Positions 11,767-59,104 of a DNA stretch of 64,000 nt are shown piece after piece. A program made the position numbers and the translations under genes. The notes under the pieces were generated by a model. It ran no database searches. It was not told the origin of the DNA and worked only from the letters and a program-made list of their open reading frames with translations. Numbering within the stretch: the stretch's first letter is position 1; every line of letters begins with the position of its first letter. Location of the stretch: the NCBI GenBank assembly GCA_030390025.1, contig CM059441.1, positions 24,738,001-24,802,000 of the forward strand, read 5' to 3'. The DNA is from Squalus acanthias (taxonomy: Eukaryota).

Positions 11767-12109
11767 ATGCCTGAGGAGAAGAAAGCAGCTCCCAAGAAGG
11801 GCGCCAAAGAAAGCCCTGAATAAAGCGGCAGCAAAGGGCGGCATGAATGGGAGAAGGTGGAGGAAGGAGAGTTACTCCATCTACGTCTACAGAGTGACGA
11901 AGCAGGTTTGCCCCTCAACACCCCGGCTTCTCCTCCTAGACCATGAGTATCGTGGCCTCGTTTGCGAACGGTACTTTTGAGCGTGTGACGGGGTGAGGCT
12001 TCCTGCCTGGCCCATTACAACAATCGCTCGACCATCAGCTCCCAGGAGATCCAGACCGCTGTGCGCCTGCTGCCGCCCCAAGGAGCTGGCCAAACACACT
12101 GTGTCGGAG
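11767..12109 (+). pseudogene. Histone H2B pseudogene, frameshifted and 3' truncated
   Basis: MPEEKKAAPKKGAK...RKESYSIYVYRV...[22 protein letters not shown]...ELAKHTVSE across several frameshifts; runs directly into a CR1 fragment. Confidence 0.92.
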
Positions 12110-27159: not shown

Positions 27160-27605
27160 TAACAAAAACAGAAAGTGCCAGAAACACTCAGCAGGTCAGG
27201 CAGCATCTGTGGAGAGAGAAACAGAGTTAACGTTTCAGGTCAGTGACCCTTCGTCAGAACTGGAAAAAGTTAGAGATGTAACAGGTTTTTAAGCAAGTGC
27301 AGGGGCAGAGAAAAGGGGGAGGGGAGGAAAGAACAAAAGGGAAGGTCTGTGATAGGGCAGAAGGCAGGAGAGATTAAGAGACAAAAGGGATGATGGTGCG
27401 AGGCAAAAGGAGATGGTGATGGGGCAAGTAAAGAAACAATAGATGGATCTAGAGGAGGTGTAAATGGGAATATCAGAATCATCAGTAACAGCTGCCATCC
27501 GGAAAAAGGGGAGCAGAGATTATGATCTGAAATTGTTGAACTCGATGATGAGTCCGGAAGGCTGTAAAGTGCCTAATCGAAAGATGAGGTGCTGTTCCTT
27601 GAGGT
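27160..27605 (-). mobile_element. Penelope family A 3' fragment inside putative 3' UTR
   Basis: Reverse complement matches 30275-30710, including EQHLIFRLGTLQPSGL endonuclease end. Confidence 0.8.
27225..27261 (-). ncRNA. Minimal hammerhead ribozyme motif (Penelope family A), intact core
   Basis: AGUU-CUGACGA-AGGGUC ACU GACCU-GAAA-CGU-U-AACU. Confidence 0.75.
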
Positions 27606-35543: not shown

Positions 35544-36449
35544 TCCTGTGCTGGCACTGGGGGAGTGGCAGCCTAGATTGTTCAATGATCTGTCGCCGTC
35601 CCCATTGTCGGAATTTGGACATCTACCGCTCAGAATCCTCCCTACAGCCGCGCACCAGAGCAAGCTCACATGGTTCGGCTCAGGGTCCCTTGTTTCTCTT
35701 GAGTGAAGAGCAGCTTCTCTGGTCCTGCTGCCCGTGTTTGTTTGTTGTCTCACTGGACTTCCTGCCGGCAGTGTCACCTACACAAACACACACAGAGGCT
35801 GCGGAGGTCAGGGATTGCAGTGAAGCATCCCAAGGAACAACGTCCTTGTGTTTCTGCCCCAGGCCACCCAGCTCGCTGCCGCTGAGCTCCACAGTCTCGA
35901 GCGTGGAGACGCAACCAGTGCTTCATCAGCATCATGACATTTACGGGCGTGTAAATCATGCAGCAGGCAGGCAATCCCTCTCCCAGCTGTCACTCAGGCA
36001 GACCGCAGTCCATTGTAAATAGACACACTTCCACGTGTCACTAACTTAAACTCGCCTTTATGGCTGTTGTCTTTAGGACAGTTCCTCTTTTTAATTGTGC
36101 TCTGCAGGGTATGTGTTATCTGTTCGAGCCAAAGTTTGGGCTGATGGTGAGGTGGAAAGCAAAGAGAGAAATGATGCGAACAGGCTGATCACAAGACACA
36201 CGTTTAGAAGCCATAAGGAGCCCGAGGGAATCGTGATTTGGAAATGTTGGGGAGTAAAGAGTATTCAAATCGGAAACAAAACCAAATAAAATAATACTGC
36301 CAGCTCTGTTCCTGTAGCTGCAGAGAACTGCTGTAAGGGGACAGGGATGGAGCTTAGCTCTCGCTGTAGAGGAACGCTCTCATTCTCACTCTGACCAGTA
36401 GCTCTGGGCGTAGATAGGACGCATTCTGCTCATTAACTCTGGGTGCAGA

Positions 36450-37135
36450 ACCGACAGTGCAGCGCTCCCTCAGTACTGCCCCTCCGACAGCGCAGCGCTC
36501 CCTCAGTACTGCCCCTCCGACAGAGCAGCGCTCCCTCAGTACTGATCCTCCGACAGTGCAGCACTCCCTCAGTACTGACCTTCTGACAGTGCAGCACTCC
36601 CTCAGTACTGACCCTCTGACAGTGCAGCACTCCCTCAGTACTGATCCTCCGACAGCGCAGCACTCCCTCAGTACTGACCCTCTGACAGTGCAGCACTCCC
36701 TCAGTACTGATCCCCCGACAGTGCAGCACTCCCTCAGTACTGACCCTCTGACAGTGCAGCACTCCCTCAGCACTGCCCCAGCAACAGTGCAGCGCTCCTC
36801 AGTACTGACCCTCTGACAGTGCAGCACTCCCTCAGTACTGATCCTCCGACAGTGCAGCTCTCCCTCAGTACTGACCCTCCGACAGTGCAGCTCTCCCTCA
36901 GTACTGACCCTCCGACAGTGCAGCTCTCCCTCAGTACTGACCCTCCGACAGTGCAGTGCTCCTTCAGTACTGGCCCCCCCCCGCGCCCCCCGACAGTGCA
37001 GTGCTCCCTCAGTACTGCCCCCCTCCGACAGTGCGGCGCTCCCTCAGTACTGCCTCTCCGACAGTGCAGCGCTCCCTCAGTACTGCACCGCCCCCCCCCC
37101 CCACCGACTGTGCAACACTCCGTCAGTGCTGAGCA
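36450..37135. repeat. Minisatellite, 33 bp unit derived from DeuSINE core
   Basis: CCGACAGTGCAGCACTCCCTCAGTACTGACCCT, ~20 copies, continuing into the SINE head on the minus strand. Confidence 0.93.
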
Positions 37136-39115: not shown

Positions 39116-39250
39116 TTCTGACGAAGGGTCATCGACCTGAAACGTTAACTCTGTTTCTCTCCCCACAGATGCTGCCTCACCTGCTGAGTATTTCCAGCAT
39201 TTTCTGTTTTTATTTCAGATTTCCAGCATCCGCGGTATTTTGCCTTTGTA
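39116..39250 (+). mobile_element. Penelope family A 3' tail starting at hammerhead core
   Basis: CTGACGAAGGGTCATCGACCTGAAACGTTAACT followed by the shared family tail. Confidence 0.75.
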
Positions 39251-40216: not shown

Positions 40217-41745
40217 TATAGACCGGTTAGCCTAACATCTGTGGTAGGTAAAATTTTGGAGTCCATTATTAAGGAGACAGTAACGGGACATTTGGATAAT
40301 CATAATTTAATAGGACAAAGTCAGCATGGTTTTATGAAGGGGAAGTCATGTTTGACAAATTTGAGGAAGTAACACACAGGGTGGATAAAGGGGAACCAGT
40401 GGATGTGGTGTATTTAGACTTCCAAAAGGCATTTGACAAGGTGCCACACAAAAGATTATTGCTTAAGATAAAAAATCACGGGATTGGGGGTAATAGTCTG
40501 GCATGGATAGAGGATTGGCTATCTAACAGAAGGCAGAGAGTTGGGATAAATGGTTCATTCTCAGACTGGCAATCAGTAACTAGTGGTGTTCCGCAGGGGT
40601 CAGTGCTCGGTCCCCAACTCTTTACAATCTATATTAACGATTTGGAGGAGGGGACCGAGTGTAACATATCAAAGTTTGCAGATGATACTAAGATGGGAGG
40701 GAAAGTAGTGAGTGAGGAGGACATAAAAAATCTGCAAGGGGACATAGACAGGCTAAGTAAGTGGGCAGAGATTTGGCAGATGGAATACAATACTGGAAAG
40801 TGTGAGGTTATGCACTTTGGCAGGAAAAATAGTAGAGCAAGTTATTATCTAAATGGCAAGAAACTGGAAAGTACTGAAGTACAAAGGGATCTGGGGGTCC
40901 TGGTGCACGAAACTCAAAAGGTTAGTATGCAGGTGCAGCAAGTGATTAAGAAGGCCAATGGAATGTTGGCTTTCATTGCTAGGGGGATAGAATATAAAAA
41001 TAGGGAGGTATTGCTTCAGTTGTACAAGGTATTGGTGAGACCGCACCTGGAATACTGCATACAGTTTTGGTGTCCATACTTAAGAAAAGACATACTTGCT
41101 CTCGAGTCAGTACAAAGAAGGTTCACTCGGTTAATCCCGGGGATGAGGGGATGGACATATGAGGAGAGGTTGGGTAGATTGGGACTCTACTCATTGGAGT
41201 TCAGAAGAATGAGAGGCGATCTTATTGAAACATATAAGATTGTGAAGGGGTTGGATCGGGTGGATGCGGGTAGGATGTTCCCGATGATGGGTGAAACTAG
41301 AACTAGGGGGCATAGTCTTAGAATAAGGGGCTGCTCTTTCAAAACTGAGATGAGAAGGAACTACTTCACTCAGAGGGTGGTAGGTCCATGGAATATGCTG
41401 CCCCAAAAAGCTGTAGAAGCTACATCATTACATAAATTTAAAACAGAAATAGACAGTTTCCTAGAAGTAAAGGGAATTAAGGGTTACGGGGAGCGGGCAG
41501 GAATTTGGACATGAGTCTAGGTTCGGATCGGTCATGGCCCTATGGGTAGCGTAGCGGGCCCAGGGGCCGTGTAGCCTGATCCTGCTCCTATTTCGTGTGT
41601 CCAATTATGTTAGGTTCAGGAGATGGTTCTGTGATAGTAGATTGGCGGTTAGGATCAGATCAGCCATGATCTTATTGAATGGCGGAGCAGGCTCGAGGGG
41701 CCAATTGGCCTACTCCTGCTCCTATTTCTTATGTTCTTATGTTCT
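40217..41745 (+). mobile_element. Young 5'-truncated CR1 LINE with reverse transcriptase
   Basis: 388-aa ORF with LDFQKAFDKV, GVPQGSVLGP, FADD; TTCTTATG tail; splits an L2 tail. Confidence 0.95.
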
Positions 41746-44272: not shown

Positions 44273-44467
44273 TACCCCTGCTCAATGTTCCTTGTCATTT
44301 TGCATTGGTGCCGTGCGGCCCCTTCAAGCAAAATGCCGGTAACTGTTGGATTTTTGAGGGAGACGGCTCTGGAAACCAAATGTGCGATGATGCTTTTAGA
44401 TGTATTACTGGCAGTTTCTCACCCAGCTCGTCAGATTGGGATGTACAAAGCCTACCTTTATTAAAAT

Positions 44468-45463
44468 GAGAAGTCGCACAACACCAGGTTATAGTCCAAC
44501 AGATTTATTTAATTTTACAAGCTTTCGGAGCTTTCGCTCCTTCCTCAGGTAGGTTAGCAGTGAGAGAATCTCCCAGAATTCACAATTTAAACACAGACAA
44601 AATCTATTCAAATCTTTCCCTACATCAAAGACACACTAAGAGCACAGCCAAGACAATGAGATGTGTCCCAGGGGGTCCAACGTGTCAAACCACCTGCTGG
44701 CTGCATATCCTGTCAATTTGTGTTGGTTCTTGTGTTAGTCTTTTTAAAAAAAAAAACACCTGGGAAGACCGGCCATGATGTCAAGTCACGTTCTGTATCG
44801 TGACATGAACCCGATATCGCGATTGAGGCCATCCTCATGAGTGCGGAACTTGGCTATCAGTTTCTGCTCTATGATTTTGCGCTGTCGTGTATCCCGAAGG
44901 CCGCCTTGGAGAACGCTTACCCGCAGATCCGAGGCTGAATGCCCCTGGCTGCTGAAGTGTTCCCCGACTGGGAGGCAACCCTCCTGCCTGGCGATTGTTG
45001 CGCGGTGTCCGTTCATACGTTGTCTCAGTGTCTGCATGGTCTCACCGATGTACCATGCTCTGGAGCATCCTTTACTGCAACGTATCAGGTAGACAACGTT
45101 GGCCGAGTCACATGAGTATGTACCGTGTACCTGGTGGGTAGTGTCCTCACGTGTGATGATGGTATCTGTGTCCATGATTTGGCATGTCTTGCAGCGGTTG
45201 CCGTGGCAGGGTTGTGTGGTGTCTTGGTTGCTGTTCTCCTGAAAGATGGGTAATCTGCTGCGAACGATGGTACTTTTGAGGTTAGGCGGCTGCTTGAAGG
45301 CGAGTAGTGGAGGCGTGGGGATGGCCTTAGCAAGGTGTTCGTCGTCATCGATGACATGTTGAAGGCTGCGAAGAACAAGGCGTAGTTTTTCCGCTCCGGG
45401 GAAGTACTGGACGACGTAGGGTACTCTGTTGGTTGTGTCCCGTGTTCGTCTTCTGAGGAGGTC
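44468..45463 (-). mobile_element. Penelope-like element, 3' part with GIY-YIG endonuclease
   Basis: ORF 44786-45175 has VVYLIRC...YIGET...RQRMNGHR...EQKLI...GLN; downstream UTR carries hammerhead motif and AATAAA. Confidence 0.9.
44516..44551 (-). ncRNA. Minimal type I hammerhead ribozyme motif (Penelope family B)
   Basis: UAC-CUGAGGA-A-GGAGC GAAA GCUCC-GAAA-GCU-U-GUA: both core boxes, helix II with GAAA loop, palindromic helix III. Confidence 0.82.
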
Positions 45464-45788
45464 TTATTAAAGGATGGCCTGCAAATTCTAAATTGTCCTT
45501 TGAGTTTTTGCTATCCTTAAGCATACCTTGACCCCTTTAAGGGGCCGCGCGGGCTGTTCAAAATACCGCACGTGCGCTGCAAAGCCGGCTGCGCGGGGTC
45601 CCTTGAGCGCTGCACGCCCGGCGTACAGGCAACCTTGCCCCCCCACTGGGGTCTGACTATGGCTCCATACGAAAGAACTCTCATGTAGAAAAAGGACTTG
45701 CATCCTGAAGACGTCCCAAAGCACTTTGGAGCCAACAAATTACTTTGGAAATGTTGTTTTGTAGGTCAAGAACCAAGCAGTCTGCTGC

Positions 45789-47293: not shown

Positions 47294-48193
47294 GTCACCC
47301 CATGGCTCAGTGGGTAGCACCCTCGCCTCTGAGTCAGCAGGTTGTGGGATCAAGTCCCAATCCCGAGACTGGAACACAAAAATCTAGGTTGACACTCCAG
47401 TGCAATACTTACAATTTTGTTTAATAACAATCCTGTGAAGAAAGACTTGCATTTCTACAGCGCTTTTCACAATCACCGGACGTCCCAAAGCGCTTTACAG
47501 CCAATCAAAGTACTTTTTGAAATGCAGTCACTGTTGTAATGTAGGAAACGCAGCAGCCAATTTGCGCACAGCAAGCTCCCACAAACAGCAATGTGATAAT
47601 GACCTCTACTTACCATAGACCAACCCTTTTGTTCTTTTATTCCTCCCCCCAGCTTCCCCCTTGCATTTTTATCTGTTTAATTTCTTGCTTTTCGCTCAGT
47701 TCCGACGAAGGGTTTCGACCTGAAACGTTAACTCTGTTTCTCTCTCCACAGATGTTGCCTGGCCTGCTGAGTTTTTCCAGCGTTTTCTGCTGTTATTTCG
47801 GATTTCCAGCATCCGCAGTATTTTGCTATCATACTGAGATTAACTAGCTGGCTGCACTGTCGGAGGTGCCGTCTTTCGGATGAGATGTTAAACCGAGGCC
47901 CCATCTGCCCTCTCAGGTGGCTGTAAAAGATCCCATGGCCACTATTTCGAGGAAGAGCAGGGGAGTTATCCCCGGTGTCCTGGGCCAATATTTATCCCTC
48001 AACCAACATCACTAAAACAGATTATCTGGTCAATATCACATTGCTGTTTGTGGGAGCTTGCTGTGCGCAAATTGGCTGCTGCGTTTCCTACATTACAACA
48101 GTGACTGCATTTCAAAAAGTACTTTGATTGGCTGTAAAGCGCTTTGGGACGTCCGGTGATTGTGAAAAGCACTGTAGAAATGCAAATCTTTCT
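47294..48193 (+). mobile_element. DeuSINE split by templated inverted insert and Penelope tail
   Basis: Head 47294-47409, remainder from 47851. Confidence 0.75.
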
Positions 48194-49712: not shown

Positions 49713-49889
49713 CCAAATTCCTGCAACTGTGACTTTATTGTTGTCTTTTACAATTTTTTCATTTCTATTTTTGCTCTTGTACTCTATGCCACTGTTTATA
49801 AAATCCAAAATGCCACAAATTCCGAGTAGTTATGCATCAATTTCATTCTGTGAATTGGGGAAGGATACTCCCATGTGATAGTTGCCTTT

Positions 49890-50755
49890 ATACCTTCTCT
49901 ACATTCTACTGAAACCGTACACCTTCTCTACGTTCTAATGAGAGACTGTACACCTTCTCTACATTCTACTGAAACCCGTATACACCTCTCTACATAACCG
50001 TACACCTTATCTACATTCTATGAGGACTGTACACCTTCTCTACATTCTACTGAGAGACTGTACACCTTCTCTACATTCTACTGAAACCGTACACCTTCTC
50101 TACATTCTACTGAGAGACTGTACACCTTCTCTACATTCTACTGAAACCGTACACCTTCTCTACATTCTATTGAGAGACTGTACACCTTCTCTACGTTCTA
50201 TTGAGAGACTGTACACCTTCTCTACATTCTACTGAGAGACTGTACACCTTCTCTACATTCTACTGAGAGACTGTACACCTTCTCTACATTCTACTGAGAG
50301 ACTGTACACCTTCTCTACATTCTACTGAGAGACTGTACACCTTCTCTACATTCTACTGAGAGACTGTACACCTTCTCTACATTCTACTGAGAGACTGTAC
50401 ACCTTCTCTACATTCTACTGAGAGACTGTACACCTTCTCTACGTTCTATTGAGAGACTGTACACCTTCTCTACGTTCTATTGAGAGACTGTACACCTTCT
50501 CTACATTCTACTGAAACCGTACACCTTCTCTACATTCTACTGAGAGACTGTACACCTTCTCTACGTTCTACTGAGAGACTGTACACCTTCTCTACGTTCT
50601 ACTGAGAGACTGTACACCTTCTCTACGTTCTACTGAGAGACTGTACACCTTCTCTACGTACTACTGTGAGACTGTACACCTTCTCTACGTTCTACTGTGA
50701 GACTGTACACCTTCTCTACGTTCTACTGAGAGACGGTACACCTTCTCTACGTTCT
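49890..50755. repeat. Minisatellite, 31 bp unit with 29 bp variant
   Basis: TGAGAGACTGTACACCTTCTCTACATTCTAC and TGAAACCGTACACCTTCTCTACATTCTAC. Confidence 0.95.
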
Positions 50756-51120
50756 AGGCTGACACTCCAGTGCTGAGGGAGCGCTGCAATGTCGGAGGTG
50801 CCGTCTTTCAGGAAAGACGTTAAACCGAGGCCCCGTCTGCTCTCTCAGGTGGACGTAAAAGATCCCATGGGCACTATTTCGAGGAAGAGCAGGGGAGTTC
50901 TCTCCGATGTCCTGGGGCCAATATTTATCCCTCAACCAACATCACTAAAACAGATTATCTGGTCATTATCACATTGCTGTTTGTGGGAGCTTGCTGTGCA
51001 CAAAATTGGCTGCCGCGTTTCCTACATTACAACAGTGACCACACTTCAAAAAGTACTTCATTGGCTGTAAAGCGCTTTGGGATGTCCTGAGATCGTGAAA
51101 GGTGCTGTAGAAATATAAAC
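50753..51120 (+). mobile_element. DeuSINE at end of minisatellite
   Basis: Core and tail; head missing. Confidence 0.8.
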
Positions 51121-54959: not shown

Positions 54960-55555
54960 CTTAGAGCAGAGAAGGTTAAGGGGAGATTTGATAGAGGCGT
55001 TCAAAATCATGAAAGGTGTTGATAAGAGTAAATATGGAGAAACTGTTTCCACTGACAGGAGGGTCGGTAACCAGAGGACACAGATTTATGGTAATTGGCA
55101 AAAAAAACCAGGGGGGGAGATGAGGAGAATTATTTTACGCAGCGAGTTGTTATGATCTGGGAAATGCGCTGCTTGAAAGGGTGGCGGAGGCAGCTTCAAT
55201 AGTAACTTTCAAAAGGGAATCGGATACATACTTGAAAAGGAAGAATTTACAGGGAAACAACAACAGAAAACACTGGAAAAACTCAGCAGGCCAGGCAACA
55301 TCCGTGGAGAGAGAAACAGAGTTAACGTTTCAGGTCGAAACCCTTCGTCAGAACTGAGAAAAAAGCAGGAAATGAAACAGATAAAAAAGCAAGGGGGAGG
55401 CTAGGGGGAGGAATAAATGTGGTAAGTAGATATACAGGGATATGGGGAAAGAGCAGGGGGGGAGTGGGACCAATTGGATCGCTCTACTAAAGAGCCGACA
55501 CTGGCACGATGGGCCGAATGGCCTCCTTCTGTGCTTTGTGGTTCTATGATTCTGT
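54960..55555 (+). mobile_element. CR1 3' fragment interrupted by Penelope tail
   Basis: LEQRRLRGDLIEAFK; Penelope tail at ~55255-55430. Confidence 0.8.
55320..55355 (-). ncRNA. Minimal hammerhead ribozyme motif (Penelope family A), intact core
   Basis: AGUU-CUGACGA-AGGGU UUCG ACCU-GAAA-CGU-U-AACU. Confidence 0.75.
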
Positions 55556-57877: not shown

Positions 57878-58377
57878 GACTTATGACAAATATGGGGCCT
57901 GAGGGGAGTGTTTGCATGTGGAGTTGTCTGTATGTAATGTATGAAGGTATTTGAAAGATACTAATTGATTTGATTAAGAAGAAAGATTTTGTGTTTGCCA
58001 GGCAGGCTGCCTGCCATCTCAGCCTGATGAGATTTGGCCATTTGGGGCCTGCTGTATGCTAATAGAGTTTAGACTGATAAATAGCCTCCACTAGCCAAAC
58101 CATTTGTCCAGACCTCGTCTACAAGTAACAACAGGGCCCAGCTGGGGTTAATATCTCCAGGGCCAGTGTCAAAATCACATTAAAGGTGCCCATTCCCCTG
58201 TGTACAAGGACAGTGCGGAGAGAAGATAAACTGAGCAGGTCCGAGGTGTTTAGGCATTTTTGAGCCTCTTTGTCGAAACCTGCGCTATTGCCACTGGTCC
58301 CTGAAGCACAGGGCAACCATGGGTACTGCCGTATCACGCTTATGTTACTGGTCTAGTAATGCCTGGATTACTAATGT

Positions 58378-58655
58378 TTACAGAGGGTCCCTGGGTGTAT
58401 GTTAATATTTAGAGAGGGTCCCTGGGTGTATGTTAATATTTACAGAGGGTCCCTTGGTGTATGTTAATATTTACAGAGGGTCCCTTGGTGTATGTTAATA
58501 ATTACAGAGGGTCCCTGGGTGTATGTTAATATTTACAGAGGGTCCCTTGGTGTATGTTAATATTTACAGAGGGTCCCTGGGTGTATGTTAATATTTACAG
58601 AGGGTCCCTGGGTGTATGTTAATATTTACAGAGGGTCCCTGGGTGTATGTTAATA
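58378..58655. repeat. Minisatellite, 31 bp unit, ~9 copies
   Basis: TTTACAGAGGGTCCCTGGGTGTATGTTAATA repeated. Confidence 0.95.
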
Positions 58656-59104
58656 ATCAGTCAGGGCCCCCACCCCTTCTCACTATCCAGTGACCCTATG
58701 CTGCAAAATGCCCCATATGTTCAAATGAGATCTGGATTGGGCTCGGCTGTGATGCTTCCCACAGCCAAATAACCCGGCAGCACTCACTGCGTAGGCTCAC
58801 ACACAAACAGTAGCGGCTTGGGTGAGGTCATGGGCCCCAGCGCAAGTGGCTTCAATAAAGAGCAGTGGAGAATACTGGAGAGAGGAAGGAACAAAGAGAT
58901 TGGTCTATAATTGAATTGGAAACCAGACCAGACTGACAGGCTGACTCAATATACAAAAGATGAGCTAAATATTCATGAGGTGGCCGGTTTAAATGAAGAG
59001 GTCTCCAAGATCTCCAGCTATCTTACTTGGGCATTGAGGACACACCAAACAATGAGACCCAAGGAGAGGGTGCAGAGTTTGTGGACAAAACAATAAGCAA
59101 ATGG

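Follow-up and report, generated by a model that had tools for sequence, protein, structure and literature searches.

Copy junctions and single-base insertions suggest partial in vivo cleavage by the minimal hammerhead of a young Neptune-type Penelope-like element in Squalus acanthias

Minimal hammerheads (min-HHR) have been described in the pseudo-LTRs (pLTRs) of metazoan Penelope-like elements (PLEs) by Cervera and de la Pena (2014, PMC4209133), with fishes, coelacanth, frog and reptiles as the named hosts. In the accessible sections of that paper their activity in vitro is low and no in vivo evidence for the PLE hammerhead is given, and two of its supplement files contain no shark names. The function of the PLE hammerhead has been called unclear (PMC8557442, available part). 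In PAc, a Poseidon element of the green anole, the hammerhead cuts only with protein and is dispensable for insertion, according to the available text of Frangieh et al. (2024, PMC11167929). R2 elements carry HDV-like 5' ribozymes; there almost every full-length copy owes its 5' end to cleavage, and the junctions follow the places where the ribozyme cuts (Eickbush et al. 2013, PMC3774820, accessible sections). Hammerhead-bearing retrozymes and PLEs have also been reported in one cartilaginous fish (10.64898/2026.07.22.740005, available part).

The hammerhead described here lies in a 64,000-nucleotide stretch of S. acanthias DNA (the window, with positions counted from its first letter). As far as the available parts of the papers above allow comparison, it has in common with the min-HHR of PMC4209133 both core boxes, an extra nucleotide that separates position 9 from 10.1, the pair G10.1-C11.1, a palindromic 15.2-16.2, a short helix I, the position in the pLTR and the occurrence in thousands of mostly single copies; it differs in its host and in reaching tens of thousands of copies. 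With PAc the shark element shares a pLTR hammerhead, AT-rich targets, templates that are mostly uncut and two internal sites of RT initiation separated by about 35-40 nt, which give a tail. However, the hammerhead of PAc lies inside the ORF, whereas here it stands 91 nt before the ATG, with a tail ending at the start codon and a Neptune-type linker, and while no reads ending at the cut are reported in the accessible text on PAc, genomic copies in the shark mark the cut. The Neptune clade (PMC8557442) has the same RT, CX2-5CxxC linker, C-terminal GIY-YIG endonuclease with CCHH motif, partial tandems, inverted 5'-truncated arms and tail, but its targets are clear microsatellites and those found here are AT-rich. 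As in R2, 5' junctions and untemplated bases would record the ribozyme cut, although the ribozyme is of another class and only 1-2% of the copies start at the cut. We consider it fairly probable, judging from sequence, that the hammerhead of this young Neptune-type PLE cuts a minority of its RNAs in vivo at U17^G1.1, likely as a dimer or aided by protein, and that scars in the genome record this cutting. The scars at the predicted cut are what is new here, the kind of hammerhead itself being published; in the literature searched, no account was found of junctions or insertions piling up where PLE hammerheads cut.

The window copy of the element consists of the following parts.

44463..45464, minus strand: 5'-truncated PLE copy of Neptune type, about 1.0 kb, without RT and without the 35-nt tail
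45464..45471, minus strand: left copy of the target-site duplication, 8 bp, AT-rich, overlapping the first base of the element
44458..44465, minus strand: right copy of the target-site duplication, 8 bp
44786..45463, minus strand: last 225 codons of the PLE ORF, encoding the end of the thumb, the linker and the GIY-YIG endonuclease and matching the end of the 887-892 aa ORF
45182..45208, minus strand: CX4CxxC zinc-finger-like linker in the translation, a Neptune/Nematis mark as defined in the available part of PMC8557442
44789..45109, minus strand: GIY-YIG endonuclease domain, in which VVY...YIG encloses two cysteines, with R, H, E, N as well
44463..44785, minus strand: 3' untranslated part of the pLTR, the same sequence standing upstream of the ORF in tandem copies

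The best genomic matches to the window copy are 96-99% identical over the same span and extend further upstream, so the copy is 5'-truncated; its 3' end falls in the commonest end class. It is a dead stub that spans the cut, a passive product whose own hammerhead is probably without a role. No second copy of the same PLE family was found within the window beside this solitary RT-less stub. The first-pass annotation had recognized a GIY-YIG ORF of Penelope type, and this is confirmed by a homologue of 83% identity that passes the PF01541 cut-off and by the predicted fold, which best matches I-TevI (TM 0.78 of target, E 0.018). The window ORF itself had no Pfam match, and its full length gave no match by sequence to solved structures. 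All ORF homologues with a species name come from sharks. Full copies hold a single ORF of 887-892 aa with RT (RVT_1 above cut-off), the CX4CxxC linker and, at the C-terminus, a GIY-YIG domain, and both the CX2-5CxxC linker and the CCHH motif, as defined in the accessible text of PMC8557442, are present in the translations. The pLTR tandems, inverted truncated arms and 30-40 nt tail of EN+ PLEs are found as well. By the motifs of that source, as far as available, the element is best assigned to the Neptune type, the assignment formally leaving room for Nematis. A non-LTR retrozyme, in which every one of the tandem, non-coding units has a type I hammerhead, was considered and rejected, as the window copy derives from a coding element and is truncated.

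Within the pLTR part, the hammerhead and its surroundings are built as follows.

44516..44551, minus strand: minimal type I hammerhead with a 3-bp helix I, an extra A after A9, a 5-bp helix II and the palindrome AGCU
44551-44549, minus strand: 5' strand of helix I
44548-44542, minus strand: CUGAGGA box, C3 being 44548
44541, minus strand: unpaired A
44540-44527, minus strand: helix II, 5 bp, with GAAA loop
44526-44523, minus strand: GAAA core box, with GC next and then U16.1
44520, minus strand: U16.1
44519, minus strand: U17
44518-44516, minus strand: GUA, the 3' strand of helix I
44518..44519, minus strand: predicted cleavage site U17^G1.1 (GCUU^GUA), where the junction and +G pile-ups of other copies are found
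44504..44509, minus strand: AAUAAA polyadenylation signal, beginning 10 nt past the predicted cut, with poly(A) after the signal in loci L267 and L268
44489..44491, minus strand: putative poly(A) addition site, 13-15 nt past AAUAAA, placed from the A-run in L267 and L268

On inspection of the sequence, all parts of the 36-nt motif were found on the minus strand where the first-pass annotation had placed them, and the stop codon of the ORF lies 235 nt upstream of the hammerhead, as it had stated. A descriptor search, which it had proposed, picked out four minimal hammerheads in the window, where 200 dinucleotide shuffles gave 0.03 on average and one at most, and a tight hammerhead pattern matched the genome 43,927 times (sister families included) against no matches of the reversed control; the motif is therefore not due to chance. 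The proposed covariance-model check (Rfam) did not detect the hammerhead and gave seven weak unrelated matches, a miss that is to be expected because the motif lacks a closed helix III. The CUGANGA and GAAA boxes, U16.1 and H17, the unpaired base between 9 and 10.1 and G10.1-C11.1 of a min-HHR are all present. The 15.2-16.2 step is palindromic: it reads GC or CG in 23 of the 24 haplotypes that recur, the remaining one being an unrelated sequence that matches by chance. An intramolecular helix III is absent. The 6-bp helix I, closed helix III, loop-loop contact and Rfam match of a canonical type I hammerhead are not found, and loop II is variable. The annotated structure, a minimal type I hammerhead with palindromic helix III and a cut at GCUU^GUA, is thereby borne out, with the cleavage predicted from sequence, and the motif is a new instance of an already published kind. 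Of the annotated GNRA loop, the GAAA loop on the 5-bp helix II of the window copy stands, but not as a family trait: a GAAA loop II occurs in only 7 of 164 copies and in none of the 85 flank-anchored copies. We rejected it as a conserved feature; it is an incidental rare variant of a loop II that varies. In fold predictions the hammerhead monomer formed helix II only (z -1.67 vs shuffles), monomer and tail folds were no better than shuffles (z -0.1 to -1.7), and the hammerhead dimer was not obtained in a two-molecule cofold. The computed energy of the AGCU duplex is -2.5 kcal/mol.

A second family, whose palindrome is ACGU, also has minimal hammerheads in the window, at 27233-27257 (minus strand), 39118-39142 (plus strand), 55328-55351 (minus strand) and about 47702-47730 (plus strand), the last with U4 changed to C. 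Elsewhere a 402-codon reverse transcriptase fragment (40306-41514, plus strand; RVT_1, E 2e-20) is presumably of a CR1-type LINE, and a short frame at about 11770-11830 (plus strand), which stops after about 18 codons and is likely a pseudogene fragment, resembles the N-terminus of histone H2B. Minisatellite arrays of 31-33 nt units occupy 49886-50845, 58310-58701 and 36402-37102.

At least 9,876 family copies in the genome keep both hammerhead flanks. The first-pass annotation placed the hammerhead downstream of the ORF, which is correct for the window copy; it is, however, a feature of the pLTR and in tandem elements also stands 91 nt before the start codon. Thirty loci that include the ORF start were taken by best score: 26 of them span the upstream cut, one starts at the cut and three start past it, and because so many span it, self-cleavage is at most partial and not obligatory. 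Twenty of these 30 loci, selected for an upstream hammerhead, were extended. Both hammerheads were present in 18 of the 20 extended full-length loci, in both flanking repeats and 3,011-3,045 nt (about 3.0 kb) apart, and 15 of the 20 had an open ORF. The upstream repeats end at scattered positions, up to 1 kb or more upstream; in L055 and L076 they begin at the CUGA box. The 3' ends of 187 copies, whose flanks are AT-rich at the copy ends, lay near the repeat end (95), near the ATG (67, the tail), in the ORF (20) or elsewhere (5), and the two end classes fit the pair of RT start sites described for the anole element in the accessible part of PMC11167929. In L071:1474-1531 the tail can pair over about 9 bp with sequence just past AAUAAA, giving a stem around the two RT start sites that is no better than in shuffles. 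The family is present in the contigs of three RNA runs, contigs that may derive from DNA.

In the 85 flank-anchored copies, an inherited variant (one in at least two copies) was seen at none of the 12 core positions and at 12 of 33 unpaired non-core positions (p 0.012, for sites that are not independent). Across genomic copies the core is thus better kept than the unpaired positions outside it, in line with the first-pass annotation. Both boxes are intact in 82 of the 85 copies, and N7 is C, G or A among copies. Three inherited changes were found in helix II, every one giving G-U pairs, and across families both sides have changed in helix I (UAC/GUA, UCAC/GUGA, AGUU/AACU) and in the palindrome (AGCU, ACGU). 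Compensatory changes were counted with a core-anchored script; a pair count on a MAFFT alignment was out of register and was discarded. A purine occurs at position 17 in only 97 of the 43,927 pattern matches. The core is thus under selection, with helices I and II kept by compensatory change.

Such strong selection on the core, together with the paired hammerheads, 3.0 kb from each other, of 18 of the 20 loci, could also mean that cleavage is a regular step: both hammerheads of a tandem RNA would cut, and the RNA would be circularized by ligation before being copied, intact junctions hiding a cut that was rejoined (the model of Cervera and de la Pena 2014). Precise rejoining or jumps would indeed be traceless, but the scattered ends of the upstream repeats, up to 1 kb or more upstream, are also what read-through RNA yields, AAUAAA is in use, cleavage was not needed for insertion in vitro (PMC11167929, available part), and ligation does not predict the extra G described below. 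We regard this model as quite unlikely, and return to the cutting of a minority of RNAs.

Copies of the window copy's own family that start at the cut were sought as 5' junctions with patterns excluding intact upstream sequence, and the first 100 listed places were tallied by hand; pile-up counts here and below are samples from the first chromosomes listed. In the interval from -8 to 0 before G1.1 (370 places), 19 of the 100 listed junctions start exactly at G1.1, a tally that omits one C17 variant and of which a script confirmed 6 among the first 30. Two control intervals of the same design each gave 6 of 100 listed (140 and 718 places), an even spread predicts 7%, and the excess at the cut has a Fisher p of 0.001; the downstream control, with more junctions overall (718), is common to more families. 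In an interval on the downstream side, 15 junctions retain the G against about 11 beginning at the following base (hand tally among the matches listed). By our estimate about 130-210 copies, i.e. 1-2% of the family, start at the cut. One full-length copy with an 888-aa ORF (L422) starts exactly at the upstream cut. The base before the exact junctions is mostly A (17 of 19), not G; an inverted arm adjoins 11 of the 19 and is absent at 8, and about 11 fold-backs at AAGCTT occur among the same 100 listed junctions. In L267 and L268, which belong to two subfamilies, a unit ending in 9-10 A, 13-15 nt past AAUAAA, is joined to a unit starting with G1.1, the join in L267 carrying an extra G. The AAUAAA noted in the first-pass annotation a few nt past the cut is therefore present and also used, as poly(A) in these two copies attests. 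Insertion of Tx1 was considered as a cause of the exact junctions and rejected, as the low-match junctions compared had no common non-PLE flank. In L253, L256 and L266 the first bases past the cut are repeated and stacked before the junction, as if the RT had restarted repeatedly at the RNA 5' end.

In sister families the cut is marked by insertions. Over a 14-nt interval, 147 places were one base longer, and the 100 listed comprised 91 simple insertions after nine rearrangements had been dropped (hand tally). At the cut were 57 G, 2 A and 4 T, the remaining listed insertions lying in the A run (10), at the foot of helix II (12), in the T run (3) and elsewhere (3). Forty-five of the 57 +G loci were fetched and comprise at least six stem-loop backgrounds. 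An inverted partner arm had the same G in none of 23 fetched +G loci, and since partner arms never carry the G, it arises anew at each insertion. The 5' strand of helix I is missing on the same DNA strand in 14 of 34 +G loci examined, which argues against templating in finished DNA. There is no partner arm in the fetched flank of 22 of the 45 loci, and the partner in L335 and L345 does not reach helix I. A purine precedes G1.1 in about 22 of 100 listed sister-family junctions, several of them ambiguous through helix I homology, and the ACGU family has about 11-13 of 100 junctions at the cut, a weak signal with about 40% contamination by another repeat context. In the window copy's own family no +G was found at the cut among 100 listed places, and one +T, where about four +G were expected; one possible explanation, though post hoc, is that the products come apart because helix I is weaker. 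A metagenome scan for +G gave a single match, an unrelated chance one. Among single sister-family loci, three A are inserted exactly at the cut in L294:1511, and H17 is replaced by A exactly at the cut in L283.

The +G is known from one assembly, and the pile-up could be a context-specific consensus error, especially as T insertions before G12 lie at a CpG, where mixed alleles could yield a two-base call. Yet an added base is much rarer in the runs of three A or T (10 and 3) than at the single G (57), the G was duplicated in none of 390 copies in a second TTGTG context (an underpowered comparison, about one being expected), and the junction excess and poly(A) joins would be left unexplained, so that we find such an error very improbable. 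Copying of the cap by RTs as an extra base is established, and as the extra base here is G, G1.1 might instead be a minor capped transcription start at which the RT copies the cap and stops. This we hold to be hardly credible, given that only one of the 30 ORF-start loci starts at G1.1, that the +G copies run precisely into U17 and would require an RNA ending there, and that A mostly precedes the exact junctions.

A second insertion hot spot was observed at the 11.1/G12 step, at the foot of helix II (L331-L360, L423-L430; 12 listed, 9 T). Its insertions, too, are absent from partner arms and hence de novo, which means that stalls can add bases without a break; it may reflect RT stalling or a mixed-allele call at the CpG. 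This hot spot bears on a further explanation, namely that the hammerhead, though conserved, rarely if ever cuts the copied RNAs, the scars arising where the RT stalls at the folded core and short self-complementary stretches (the helix I strands, AAGCTT) switch the cDNA end to a partner cDNA, templating the G as well. Since C3 lies beside helix I, precisely a G would be predicted; palindrome fold-backs are common, also in one control interval, inverted junctions through helix I homology occur in a sister family, and the cut is spanned by most copies. However, 8 of the 19 exact junctions lack the inverted arm, as do 22 of the 45 +G loci in the fetched flank, and the partners in L335 and L345 stop short of helix I. 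A free 5' end is required for joining poly(A) to G1.1, the cut exceeds the second hot spot by 59 listed insertions (G or A) to 12, and AT microhomology would stack junctions after the G, where 15 include it against about 11 one base later. On balance we think stalling and fold-back a rather doubtful source of the scars, and prefer occasional cutting.

Untemplated base addition by RTs is a known property. With it, cutting of a minority of RNAs could leave scars in the following way. Transcription of the element would give read-through or tandem RNA, some of which would receive poly(A) immediately beyond the hammerhead. Of this RNA, a minority would be cut at U17^G1.1, either by a dimer formed through AGCU or with the element's protein, as the accessible parts of PMC4209133, PMC6765202 and PMC11167929 would suggest. 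The RT would start at two internal sites on read-through RNA, about 53 and 93 nt past the cut, and on uncut RNA read through to give most copies, the window copy included. On cut RNA it may run off at G1.1, giving copies that start there, or may add one base and jump to an RNA 3' end: a jump to the 5' product still held alongside would give the +G scars of the sister families, and a jump to a poly(A) tail the joins in L267 and L268. That the genome is in this sense a fossil record of cleavage in vivo, through copies starting at the cut, joins of poly(A) to it and a recurrent +G left by an RT jump from the 5'-OH end of the 3' product to the 5' product, is a proposal to which we would give an even chance.

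Scars in young copies would provide in vivo evidence from DNA alone and would show that the RT of PLEs jumps between RNA ends. Precise jumps would be invisible if this is true, and many intact-looking copies may then stem from cut RNA. Counts of scars would, in the same case, gauge ribozyme activity per family in any genome, and the shark family, young and with many open ORFs (15 of the 20 extended loci), offers a test system.
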